The notes under the pieces were generated by a model that was not told where the DNA came from, made no database searches, and was given only the letters and a program-made list of their open reading frames with translations. From assembly GCF_053078305.1 (NCBI RefSeq), contig NZ_CP166879.1: a DNA stretch of 64,000 nt; one strand, written 5' to 3'. Made by a program: the position numbers and the translations under genes. The first letter of the stretch is position 1. Every line of letters starts with the position of its first letter. Below, one piece after another: positions 9,542-35,651 of this stretch.

Positions 9542-10212
9542 TTCTGAACATCACTTTTCGCCCTGCGCAGCGCCAGGTTTGCCCTGCACAGGGACAGAAA
9601 AATCAGCTCATCTGCTTGCGTTTCGGTAAACGATGGCAACGACTGCACAATGTCCGCCACTGTTTCTGTTTTAATATCTTCCTGTGTTGCAGATTCCTGT
9701 ACTGGTAACGCAACACCTGCTGGCTGAGGAAAGGCCTTACCATCATTTTCCGTTACCGGCACGGCTTTCGGCTCTGCTGGTAAATTATCGCCCGGCATGC
9801 AGTAACGAAATTTACCGTTCTGATTTACGCGTGCCAGGCGTCCCGTTGCGGTTACCACCGCCAACGTGGAAGCAACCTTGCGAATGCTAACACCGAACTT
9901 ATCCGCCAGTTCCTCACACGTTTTAGCCCCCTCCTGACCGATAAACTCAATCATCATGTCTGCGGTAACTTTTTGTTCGACCTCCCCGGTCAGCACATCC
10001 GGTACTTCAGACTGTGCTGGCTGCTCTTCGGTTACCCCGGATTCACCTTCGCCAGCCAGAAACCAGATGTGACCCGCTTTATCAACAACGCCATTTCTTT
10101 TGAGTTCCCACAGTTCGTTGAGAACCTCTTCACGACTGATATCAAGCCGCTCAGCCAGTCCAACAGAGCTGGCTTTTCCCATTGCTTTCAGTGCGTCAAA
10201 AACGGTTTCCAT
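9451..10212 (-). CDS. Hypothetical early protein with N-terminal winged-helix-like domain
   Basis: 253-aa ORF downstream of the P-like gene. Confidence 0.4.
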
Positions 10213-10245
10213 TAAAATTTCCTCCTACAAAATCGCTTCTCAGAT

Positions 10246-10908
10246 TCAAATAAAACCAGCTGCCTTCCGGCGTTCGTATTCCTGTTTCAGCCGTTCAATT
10301 GGCGTTGGCCCTTGCGGGTGTTTCGCCCCTTCCAGTTGTCGTCGCACTGGCGGAACACTCATCCCGTTACCAACATGCTTTGCCCATTTCGTCAGTTGCC
10401 GTTCCGCAAGTCGTTTTAACTCACCCTGCGTCATCTGGCGCTCAATCCCTCTGGTACGCATTTCGAGGCAGATGTGGTACAGCACAGGCTGTGGCCACGG
10501 GTATTTATCACTCCCGTCGTATCGCCAGGATTCATTGCGCCAGCGCCGGTACTCTTCCATCACGGCATCCACCGTAAGACCAAATGGATTTGCCCCACTC
10601 TCCGAAATCAGCGCAACAAACTCAGCCAGGTCCGGGGGCCACGTTTCACCCGCCCGACAGCGGTCCATGCACTGACGGCAGACCTGCCGGATTTGCTGTT
10701 CAGTCATCGCACCAATCTGGGCAATCCAGAGCTTCGAAGGTGCGGCCCCGTTCTTCTGAGTCCAGCGGTTCGAATACACCTCCCCCATAAGCTCCCACAG
10801 CTTCCAGGCCGTTTCCGTTGCTGATAAATCCGTTGTCACGTTCCCACTGTTCGCGTGCTGCCCGGATTTCCTGAACTGCCCGTGATGCCGTGCCACCTGA
10901 TGCTGCAT
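10246..10908 (-). CDS. Replication protein P-like (helicase loader); start uncertain
   Basis: 220-aa ORF resembling lambda P in the segments I recall; no Walker motifs; 209-nt overlap with the O-like gene suggests a later start (ATG at 10788 or 10707). Confidence 0.5.
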   Translation of the reverse strand: MQHQVARHHGQFRKSGQHANSGNVTTDLSATETAWKLWELMGEVYSNRWTQKNGAAPSKLWIAQIGAMTEQQIRQVCRQCMDRCRAGETWPPDLAEFVALISESGANPFGLTVDAVMEEYRRWRNESWRYDGSDKYPWPQPVLYHICLEMRTRGIERQMTQGELKRLAERQLTKWAKHVGNGMSVPPVRRQLEGAKHPQGPTPIERLKQEYERRKAAGFI

Positions 10909-11710
10909 GGCTTACCCCCTTGCTGACTGGTTTTACCTGTGCCCTGACGTGCTGCACGTGGCGGGCAAATTTCTGCTCCCACTGAACCTGCGTGAAAACC
11001 TTCCCCTCCGCCATCCAGTAATCCCGGAATGCGACAAGCTCAGCAGGTGTAAATTCCGGCTCAGGCAGAGCCATACCCCACACTGCTGCCCGTTGTCGAA
11101 AATCCGGCGACGGCTGCCAGACAGTGGTCATCGAAAATTTCCCGATCGGTTCGCTCAGGCCGTCCAGGTATTCAGGTTCGGCTGTCTGCAACGGCGCACC
11201 ATGCAACTCACTGGTCGGAATACTCTCGCGTTCACGCACGTTATGTGTGGGGTTTAATTCTTTTAGATCTGTATCTTTATTAGTTGCTTTTGTGTTTGCG
11301 TCATGTTCAAACACAACACCAACATTTGTTTGAACACCTGTTAAATCTCTCTCTTGTTTTGTTTGAACATATACTTCCTTTCTGCTTCTTCTGGCCTGAA
11401 CAGATGCTTTTCCGGCGGCTGATTTTTTGGTCAATTTTTCCCTGACTGATGCCAGATCTTCCTCAATCCGAAGATGCACCCATTCATCGCCGTTATCGCA
11501 AAAAAACTCACGCAAGGATGGTTCCACATCAGCCCATCGCTCGTTAGTCAGACGGGAAATTTTTGCCAGCCTGTTTTTAGGTATTGGTTTCCCTGTTTGC
11601 CAGTAATTGAACATCAGCAACAAATACGCACCGTGCTCCTCTGCGGACAAATGCATGGTGTCAGCCAGGTAATCAGCTATGTACAGTTGCATGTATGGTA
11701 ATGCGGCCAT
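10700..11710 (-). CDS. Replication initiator O-like / YdaU-like (DUF1376) protein
   Basis: ATG at 11710 gives MAALPYMQLYIADYL... N-terminus; iteron-like repeats lie inside the coding sequence. Confidence 0.6.
   Translation of the reverse strand: MAALPYMQLYIADYLADTMHLSAEEHGAYLLLMFNYWQTGKPIPKNRLAKISRLTNERWADVEPSLREFFCDNGDEWVHLRIEEDLASVREKLTKKSAAGKASVQARRSRKEVYVQTKQERDLTGVQTNVGVVFEHDANTKATNKDTDLKELNPTHNVRERESIPTSELHGAPLQTAEPEYLDGLSEPIGKFSMTTVWQPSPDFRQRAAVWGMALPEPEFTPAELVAFRDYWMAEGKVFTQVQWEQKFARHVQHVRAQVKPVSKGVSHAASGGTASRAVQEIRAAREQWERDNGFISNGNGLEAVGAYGGGVFEPLDSEERGRTFEALDCPDWCDD
11300..11372. repeat. Putative replication origin iterons
   Basis: Three copies of TGTTYRAACA (11304-11313, 11327-11336, 11361-11370) followed by AT-rich DNA, inside the O-like gene. 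Confidence 0.4.
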
Positions 11711-11796
11711 AATTGCCTCATCTTGTGACGAACCATCCTCTGGTGATATTCTGTGATTCCCCAATCAACAGAATCAGCAGGGGGCTGGCATAAATA

Positions 11797-12234
11797 TCAA
11801 TGCACCACAACAGACTCGCCGGATGACCCGCCGTCGCTGAAATACGCTTTCCGGTAAACGGCCTGGACAGCATCATCATGTGCATCAATTGCCGTGCTCA
11901 ACGCTTCCTGCGCCGCCAGTAATGCACGGCGCTCAACAGTGTCAAAAATACTGAGGTGATAACGCAGTTCACGCGGAAGAACAGTCAGGATAGCCGGAAT
12001 TAGTGCCTGAATTTTTTCAACAGCATCAGGCGTATCCTTTTCAAGCCAGCGAAAAATATTTTGTATATTCAATCCAATACCCTCTGTCGTAGAGGTGTCA
12101 TGCATTGGTGGATAAGTCATTTCAAGCTCAAAATATGCTGTCGCTATATCATCAGCGATTTTTTTGCGCCCTACCCTCGGATAAAGCAGCCACGCATTCA
12201 TCGCCATGCGGATGTGCTCATGCTTGATTTTCAT
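11797..12234 (-). CDS. YdaT-like protein (cII-position gene)
   Basis: 145-aa ORF directly downstream of the cro-like gene, as ydaT is in Rac. Confidence 0.45.
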   Translation of the reverse strand: MKIKHEHIRMAMNAWLLYPRVGRKKIADDIATAYFELEMTYPPMHDTSTTEGIGLNIQNIFRWLEKDTPDAVEKIQALIPAILTVLPRELRYHLSIFDTVERRALLAAQEALSTAIDAHDDAVQAVYRKAYFSDGGSSGESVVVH

Positions 12235-12519: not shown

Positions 12520-12566
12520 GATGATTACAAATTTAAATTTAAATTTCAACTTCTATTTGTAATGCC
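12520..12566. promoter_or_regulatory. Putative oR operator/promoter region
   Basis: Inverted TTACAAAT...ATTTGTAA arms (12525-12562) in the 126-bp divergent intergenic region; related motif recurs at 13765-13819. Confidence 0.4.
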
Positions 12567-13056: not shown

Positions 13057-13416
13057 TTATAATCCAACCAGGCTTTCCAGGGGGATACCAAATTGATTAT
13101 GAAGACGGCGAATCATTGGTAACGTAAGGCTTCTGGTACCATTCAACACCTCATAAACCCGATTTTTTTTCCCAATTGCGGGTTCCAAATCTTTCACAGT
13201 CAGCCCCTGCTGTTCCATGCGAAATCTTATAGCTTCAATTGGGGATGGTGGCTCAATGGGATAATGTTTTTTTTCATATTCCTCTATTAGCAAACACATC
13301 ACCTCAAAAAAATCCCCCTCAGGCGTGTCAATTTCGGGCTCATTGTCGAACATGGGTTCAACAGCACGCAACGCGGCTTCATAATCTTGCTCTGTACGAA
13401 TAGGTTTGATGTTCAT
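13057..13416 (-). CDS. higA: HigA-family antitoxin (C-terminal HTH)
   Basis: 119-aa ORF; C-terminal HTH LTLPMIRRLHNQFGIPLESLV resembles K-12 HigA; directly follows the toxin gene (toxin-first order typical of hig loci). Confidence 0.8.
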   Translation of the reverse strand: MNIKPIRTEQDYEAALRAVEPMFDNEPEIDTPEGDFFEVMCLLIEEYEKKHYPIEPPSPIEAIRFRMEQQGLTVKDLEPAIGKKNRVYEVLNGTRSLTLPMIRRLHNQFGIPLESLVGL

Positions 13417-13418
13417 GC

Positions 13419-13721
13419 TTACTCCAGTTCGATGGTATCAGCATCAATAGCATCGTATTCCTTGTGGTTTCCGATGAATTTAACAAATACCCATCCTCGC
13501 TGATACGCAATTGCAACAATTAAACGGTAATGATTACCTTTTATGTTGAATACCACGCGCCGGTTTTTCAATATACTGGCCGTTCGGTATTGTGCCTTAA
13601 TGTCTGCTGGGCTTTTCCAGTCAGCTTTTGCCGCCTCATCCACCCATGCCCTTAGCGGTTGTTCTGCATCAGGATTCTCCGCCCAAAAATCCCTGAGTGT
13701 TTTAACTGAGATAATCTTCAT
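13419..13721 (-). CDS. higB: HigB-family toxin (RelE/ParE superfamily mRNA interferase)
   Basis: 100 aa from ATG 13721 (track ORF extends to TTG 13766); C-terminal FIGNHKEYD motif as in K-12 HigB; 2-nt gap to higA. Confidence 0.75.
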   Translation of the reverse strand: MKIISVKTLRDFWAENPDAEQPLRAWVDEAAKADWKSPADIKAQYRTASILKNRRVVFNIKGNHYRLIVAIAYQRGWVFVKFIGNHKEYDAIDADTIELE

Positions 13722-13764
13722 AACTGTATAGTAGTCCCATTTTGGGACTGATGCAACAGCTCGC

Positions 13765-13819
13765 AATTACAAATTTAATAATAAACATGTTGACCAGTTA
13801 AATTTTAATTTGTAAATTG
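13765..13819. promoter_or_regulatory. Putative oL operator region, overlapping the presumed higBA promoter
   Basis: AATTACAAATTTAA ... TTAATTTGTAAATT inverted arms, same core as the oR motif. Confidence 0.35.
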
Positions 13820-35106: not shown

Positions 35107-35625
35107 ATGGTAGATAAACGCGAATCCTATACAAAAGAAGACCTTCTTGCCTCTGGTCGCGGTGAACTGTTTGGCGCTAAAGGCCCGCAATTGCCAGCAC
35201 CGAACATGCTGATGATGGACCGTGTGGTCAAAATGACCGAAACGGGTGGTAACTTCGACAAAGGGTATGTTGAAGCAGAACTGGATATCAATCCGGATCT
35301 GTGGTTCTTCGGATGCCACTTTATTGGCGATCCGGTTATGCCGGGATGCCTGGGCCTGGACGCAATGTGGCAGCTGGTAGGGTTCTACCTCGGCTGGCTG
35401 GGCGGCGAAGGTAAAGGCCGCGCGCTGGGCGTTGGCGAAGTGAAATTCACTGGTCAGGTACTGCCGACAGCGAAAAAAGTGACCTACCGTATTCACTTTA
35501 AACGCATTGTTAATCGTCGTCTGATTATGGGTCTGGCAGATGGCGAAGTGCTGGTTGATGGTCGTCTGATCTATACCGCCAGCGACCTGAAAGTCGGTCT
35601 GTTCCAGGATACGTCTGCCTTCTGA
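35107..35625 (+). CDS. fabA: 3-hydroxydecanoyl-ACP dehydratase/isomerase FabA
   Basis: 172-aa product [41 protein letters not shown]... Confidence 0.97.
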
Positions 35626-35651
35626 TTATAATCAGACAGAGTATCAAAAGG

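Follow-up and report, generated by a model that had tools for sequence, protein, structure and literature searches.

Within a 64,000-nucleotide stretch of contig NZ_CP166879.1 (hereafter the window), the gene of a predicted prophage replication initiator contains three copies of a short dyad, TGTT-NN-AACA. The question raised by this locus is whether these copies are sites read by the initiator itself, which would place the origin of the prophage inside the initiator gene, or whether they serve another protein, another process, or nothing at all at the level of DNA.

Repeats and their setting

The repeats are non-random. The window holds three exact matches to TGTTYRAACA when either strand is considered, where 0.34 would be expected per 64 kb, and the three copies span only 66 nt (Table 1). 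At least three copies were obtained in 0 of 100 shuffles of the whole window, in none of 20,000 dinucleotide shuffles confined to the AT-rich 251 nt around the repeats (11200-11450), and in 2 of 20,000 synonymous re-codings, in which the protein was held fixed and the codons were resampled. A blind k-mer scan of the whole window returned TGTTYRAACA as the sole 10-mer with at least three copies within 120 nt. Copy 1 is oriented opposite to copies 2 and 3 and, with the flanks included, 11 of 12 bases are common to the three copies (TGTTCAAACAMA, sense strand). The part of the protein that the repeats encode comprises residues 115-136 of 336. The first-pass annotation had listed three copies of the motif, and both the number and the first two positions stand, yet the third copy starts at 11360 rather than at 11361.

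The same annotation had described the repeats as followed by AT-rich sequence. A dip in GC content does exist, with 30-40% over 11240-11399 against 55-59% in the flanks, and it coincides with the repeats; the poorest stretch, however, lies beyond them on the low-coordinate side (11240-11299). Inside the AT-rich stretch, ATCTGTATC at 11267-11275 is a 1.5-unit remnant of a (GATACA)n tract found in relatives, which in the window has shrunk to GATACAGAT, within a stretch of ~21% GC. No DnaA box lies at the repeats, and the only one-mismatch box in their vicinity is at 12107. Window-wide, 19 DnaA boxes were counted against 12.7 expected, a count of at least 19 being reached in 5 of 100 shuffles, i.e., there is no clear enrichment. 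A likeness to the oriC 13-mer was also considered and rejected as too weak: GATCTGTATCTTT in the window agrees at 9 of 11 fixed positions with GATCTnTTnTTTT, the oriC 13-mer consensus.

Table 1. Features of the replication region and their positions in the window.
Feature	Position	Strand	Description
Lambda-P-family helicase-loader gene (longest ORF)	10246..10908	-	Follows the initiator gene
Initiator gene, 336 aa	10700..11710	-	DUF1376/YdaU domain and DnaT-like domain
AT-rich stretch, proposed unwinding region	11240..11300		~30% GC; downstream of the repeats in gene sense
Recurrent mosaic junction	11255..11267		Right: N-terminal module and repeats; left: DnaT-like C-terminus and P
Repeat copy 1, inverted	11304..11313	+	+ strand TGTTCAAACA, sense TGTTTGAACA; codons V133-F-E-H136
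Middle site of the family, degenerate here	11317..11323	-	Sense GTTGGTG; K-12 Rac GTTGAAG; weak in the window
Repeat copy 2	11327..11336	-	Sense TGTTCAAACA, + strand TGTTTGAACA; codons V126-Q-T128
Repeat copy 3	11360..11369	-	Sense TGTTCAAACA, + strand TGTTTGAACA; codons V115-Q-T117
Promoter-like site, immunity region	12521..12549	-	Consensus match alone

The gene in which the repeats lie had been called O-like. They are indeed inside an initiator gene, but this gene does not encode a homologue of lambda O. With Pfam and a threshold of E <= 0.01, the protein has two matches, one to DUF1376 at aa 5-87 and one to the DnaT DNA-binding domain at aa 192-258; the lambda O family gave none. Strong PHROG matches carry the labels 'primosomal protein' and 'replication initiation protein', and none of them is an 'O-like' family. 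Judged by its sequence, the initiator is a functional analogue of lambda O, not a homologue. Its N-terminus, MAALPYMQLY, is the same start in all relatives. In K-12 (locus L001, 2138-2995) and in Rac-SA53, ydaU is annotated from a position 17 codons upstream (MLFVLILSHRAASYGAI...) of the shared MAALPY start, and this annotated start is probably too early.

The AlphaFold model of the initiator has a mean pLDDT of 71, with the domains above 90. It consists of a compact helical N-terminal part with a small beta wing (winged-helix-like), one long helix at aa 80-123, a disordered linker at aa 126-172, and the DnaT-like domain beyond. Copies 1 and 2 are in the disordered linker, and copy 3 falls where the long helix ends. 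The C-terminal domain can be superposed on the ssDNA-binding domains of E. coli and Salmonella DnaT, with 51-57% identity and a TM of ~0.9. A fold search with the N-terminal domain produced weak matches to MarR-type winged-helix regulators (E 0.1-1), and a PDB sequence search with the N-terminal profile produced nothing significant; DNA binding by DUF1376 is no more than plausible.

The loader protein matches PF06992 (E 5e-16, 59 bits, cut-off 26) and the PHROG 'P-like helicase loader', and in near-identical relatives in RefSeq its gene is annotated as the equivalent of 10246-10707. Upstream of the initiator gene are a ydaT-like gene, a cro/ydaS-like gene and a divergent repressor. The promoter-like site of the immunity region is so situated that it could serve the cro-like, ydaT-like, initiator and P genes, and transcription from it would cross the repeats. 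Farther along, a HigB-family toxin gene and an HTH antitoxin-like gene (13057-13766, - strand) directly adjoin the prophage repressor gene, according to the annotation of near-identical genomes. The only other 9-mer cluster of the window, ATAATCAGA and its complement at 35520-35640, is a palindrome, TCTGATTATAATCAGA, immediately behind the stop codon of a CDS, presumably host fabA, and a GC-rich hairpin comes next; it is probably a terminator region.

Family conservation and exchange of modules

Scanning one genome per species with the N-terminal profile yielded 30 loci, 22 of which could be anchored on the AGKAS motif and were analyzed together with the window. Citrobacter, Pseudomonas and Azotobacter are among the genera represented by these 22 related loci. 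Their DNA carries GTTCAAC/GTTGAAC sites directly behind the AGKAS motif, with 8-bp cores GTTCAAAC/GTTTGAAC in some loci. The linkers, 2.8 kb in total, contain 39 sites of the GTTSAAC type, and the surrounding 5 kb of the loci, 119 kb in total, contain 41, so that the density is 41-fold higher in the linkers. From one site to the next the distance is commonly 11 nt, and sites are found in either orientation and in every reading frame. Given that an 11-nt period is not a multiple of 3, an amino-acid repeat cannot be its source. Rahnella (for which a separate anchor was used) and a Methylococcaceae MAG have three direct copies each, and five sites were counted in Azotobacter, including two with one mismatch.

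The window fits the DUF1376/YdaU pattern defined by these loci, with its sites after AGKAS and in the 8-bp-core variant (GTTCAAAC). By position, copy 2 is the first and copy 1 the third of the conserved phased sites of the family. Copy 3 is inside 12 nt that only the E. coli Rac lineage has, and phage Rac-SA53 carries this copy in mutated form. Residues T128 and V130, in or beside copy 2, are invariant in an otherwise variable linker. Across the genera compared, both the motif and its position are conserved at the DNA level, as is typical of iterons, and on this alignment part of what would be taken for 'protein conservation' in the linker is really conservation of DNA sites.

A comparison with other prophages and phages separates the initiator gene into two parts. 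Positions 11267-11717, which hold the N-terminal domain, the three motifs and the AT-rich tract, are 95% identical to ydaU of K-12 Rac, in which all three motifs are present. Whereas the C-terminal half is DnaT-like and the loader P-like in the window, the C-terminal half of K-12 ydaU is unrelated to it and the partner loader is the DnaC/IstB-like YdaV; the immunity region is different as well. Positions 10200-11263, which hold the DnaT-like half and P, are 85-97% identical to PPompW phages and O157 prophages, and the N-terminal modules of these are unrelated. The same N-terminus and repeats are found with either a P-type or a DnaC-type loader.

The unrelated modules have repeats of their own. 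Just before the junction, the N-terminal module of the O157 EC4115 prophage carries at least four copies of GTCGTGAC, that of PPompW carries six to seven copies of ACCCAAA, and DUF1376 proteins with a T5orf172 insert carry clusters of CGTAG/CTACG. Four unrelated initiator modules have, each, their own repeats at the same spot, and, on these comparisons, the repeats are linked to the N-terminal module of the initiator. In lambdoid O genes, the established pattern is that of a type-specific N-terminus with its sites and a C-terminus matched to the loader. The mosaic found here has that pattern, the N-terminus and the sites forming one unit and the C-terminus going with the loader.

The DNA at the junction (11240-11267, sense ...GATCTAAA(AGAATTA)AACCCCACACATAAC...) encodes LNPTHN and is common to unrelated N-terminal modules, being present at ~3540-3565 in PPompW (L004) and at ~3041-3060 in the O157 prophage (L005). 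By its distribution, it looks like a recurrent recombination joint. An 87% identity to the module of DnaT-like half and P was also found in PP818812.1, which is named Actinobacillus phage vB_Apl-pPE4; at this level of identity, such a host is unexpected.

Predicted origin and competing explanations

In our assessment, the three TGTTCAAACA/TGTTTGAACA motifs are very probably iterons to which the initiator binds, and they would belong to the replication origin of a Rac-like lambdoid prophage. This prediction is made because of the repeat statistics, the AT dip, the gene context, the linkage to a module, the conservation in the family, and the active origin reported for Rac. The proposal of the first-pass annotation, namely iteron-like sites that mark an origin inside the initiator gene in the manner of lambda, gains support from the cross-genus conservation of the motif at the DNA level, as well as from the fact that the repeats appear to move with the N-terminal module while unrelated modules bring their own to the same place. 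Against it count the small number of sites (three), the degenerate middle site of the family, the lineage-specific copy 3, and a tract of 1.5 units.

If the repeats are the origin, the following course of events may be proposed. Rightward early transcription from the immunity region would lead to the production of the initiator and of the P-like loader. The N-terminal part of the initiator would bind the dyad-symmetric sites as oligomers, through the winged-helix-like DUF1376 domain, the conserved basic helix at ~aa 90-112, or both. Oligomer binding would strain the adjacent AT-rich tract (11240-11300) and cause it to melt. The DnaT-like C-terminal domain would contact single-stranded DNA, possibly holding the single strands, and the P-like protein would deliver host DnaB.

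The alternative that survives best, though an unlikely one, is that the motifs are sites of another DNA-binding protein, be it a nucleoid protein or a regulator from the phage or the host, and serve transcription control or as a packaging or recombination mark, the origin being elsewhere. Conservation at the DNA level is evidence of function but is silent on which function, the DUF1376 domain persists in variants without the motif, and no mapping of oriJ to these bases was found in the searchable literature. The motif, however, tracks the N-terminal module of the initiator and not the immunity module: the immunity regions of K-12 Rac (RacR/YdaS) and of this prophage differ, yet the repeats are the same. 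No further copy exists in the window, the operator region included, while the position of the motif, its AT-rich neighbor and the P-type loader fit the lambda layout. Furthermore, sites for a regulator would leave unexplained the presence of module-specific repeats at the same position in four unrelated modules. The narrower idea that the motif is an operator was rejected, given its absence from the immunity region.

It is very improbable that the AT-rich repeat region is mainly a recombination joint for module exchange among lambdoid prophages instead of an origin. A mosaic boundary does recur at 11255-11267, and the junction DNA (GATCTAAA...CCCCACACATAAC) is common to unrelated modules. Nevertheless, the junction DNA is a separate sequence on the left side of the repeats, and the repeats are module-specific, unlike a shared recombination joint. 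Besides, a joint at this place is compatible with an origin and is not an alternative to it.

The least credible explanation, with hardly any probability left to it, is that the repeats are by-products of a low-complexity protein linker (through V-Q-T codons, duplication or slippage) and have no role as DNA: VQT is encoded by both copies 2 and 3, the 12 nt inserted around copy 3 in this lineage could have arisen by local duplication, and the linker is predicted to be disordered, but copy 1 is inverted and encodes VFEH, three copies are kept in only 2 of the 20,000 synonymous re-codings, conservation of the motif extends from E. coli to Pseudomonas even as adjacent linker residues vary, and the sites of relatives, 11 nt apart in three frames and both orientations, largely refute a coding by-product. 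An RNA element was also rejected, as the hairpin of the inverted copies has z = -2.1 here alone, relatives have direct repeats, and Rfam returned nothing.

Under the origin reading, the question of which part of the initiator would recognize the sites is informed by variants in which a T5orf172/MUG113 domain replaces the basic helix and the linker (E. coli strain 0-4, L007 2001-3239; also L027, L032 and L036). These variants keep DUF1376 and lose the conserved basic helix (SAAGKAS...ARK), and no GTTSAAC sites were found in them. Given that DUF1376 is kept without GTTSAAC sites, it may not be the site reader. The comparison points to the basic helix, not the winged helix, as the specificity element. 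The T5orf172 variants have 9-13 CGTAG/CTACG pentamers in two clusters, one inside the part coding for T5orf172 and one just before the (GATACA)n tract. They also have a block of ~35 nt, CCGTAGTAGCTACGATAAAAACCGTAGAAAAATCGGA, that is nearly identical in Pseudomonas and E. coli.

These observations can be brought together only tentatively. It is possible that YdaU/DUF1376 initiators from enterobacteria to Pseudomonas and Azotobacter share one in-gene origin grammar, in which GTTSAAC dyads, their core being 7 or 8 bp and their spacing often one helical turn, would be followed by a codon-frozen (GATACA)n tract as an unwinding or loading element. The reader would be the basic helix after DUF1376, which could be swapped for T5orf172 with its own CGTAG sites.

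Comparison with known origins and the hexamer tract

The origin of lambda has four 19-bp iterons within gene O and an AT-rich region behind them, and the next gene encodes the P loader. The locus studied here resembles it in having dyad-symmetric repeated sites inside the initiator's own gene, in the part that encodes the inter-domain linker, an AT-rich stretch downstream in gene sense, a P-family loader gene next, and an operon read from an immunity-region promoter, represented here by a promoter-like site found by consensus. As in lambda, the N-terminal module and the sites appear to be one exchangeable unit, while the C-terminal module goes with the loader. Unlike lambda, the initiator is composed of DUF1376 and DnaT domains with no O match, its C-terminal domain resembles host DnaT, and there are three 10-bp sites, one of them inverted, instead of four 19-bp iterons. 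In terms of sequence, the layout is an ordinary lambda-style one, though the initiator is unrelated to lambda O.

Iteron-type plasmid origins, which have a Rep protein, direct repeats, DnaA boxes and an AT-rich DUE, are similar in that clustered repeats are beside an AT-rich stretch, and the sites of the relatives are phased by about one helical turn. They are dissimilar in that the present locus has no DnaA-box cluster, its sites are inside a CDS, and its loader is phage-encoded.

The Rac prophage is stated to have an active origin, oriJ (PMC3945230). The 'oriJ' primers of that study amplify a 155-bp piece of ydaV, ~0.7 kb from the ydaU repeats, and the ydaV primer region has neither a repeat cluster nor an AT dip; the primers probably sample nearby copy number. 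The ydaU repeats are the only AT-rich, repeat-bearing, origin-like feature in the replication genes of K-12 Rac. Neither a sequence placement of oriJ nor a description of these sites was found in the searchable literature, which did not include the primary oriJ papers. For oriJ of K-12 Rac, a concrete candidate can now be named in ydaU.

Among 5,426 complete E. coli genomes, 857 carry the 166-nt region, and the probable origin of a widespread prophage replication module can be placed at base resolution. DUF1376/YdaU proteins thereby gain a proposed role, and the conservation of DNA sites in the linker should be taken into account when these genes are annotated or when selection on them is interpreted. 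As compact and swappable units of initiator and sites, these modules would lend themselves to tests of the handover from phage initiators to loaders of the P or the DnaC type. Current understanding is not overturned; what deserves further attention is the site grammar common to the family, together with the T5orf172 swap.

Most loci have (GATACA)n after the sites, with n = 2-5 in the sample against 1.5 units in the window, and three Pseudomonas loci (L021-L023) have (GAAGA)n in its place. Within the tract, Asp is encoded by GAT in 48 of 48 codons and Thr by ACA in 37 of 37, in comparison with 41% and 20%, respectively, elsewhere in the same genes (Fisher p 3e-16 for GAT and 2e-22 for ACA), and this holds in hosts of 60-65% GC. 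Because the codons are frozen even in high-GC hosts, the tract appears to be constrained as DNA also, yet homogenization by slippage could contribute to the uniformity of its codons. In loci L009, L020, L025-L031, L034 and L035, (GATACA)n is on the sense strand, ~100-140 nt after the AGKAS codons, and encodes DTDT. A GATACA/GATAAA tract is present in the O157 prophage with an unrelated N-terminal module (L005), and a GATACA-type tract is absent from PPompW (L004). Right after the hexamer tract, runs of C flank a short AT core in K-12 Rac (GATCCCCCCCTAAATCCCCCCCGGGGG, L001 ~2450-2500), in L033 and in L021. In the loci with C runs and an AT core, the C-terminal half is not DnaT-like, and this arrangement may be another origin element.
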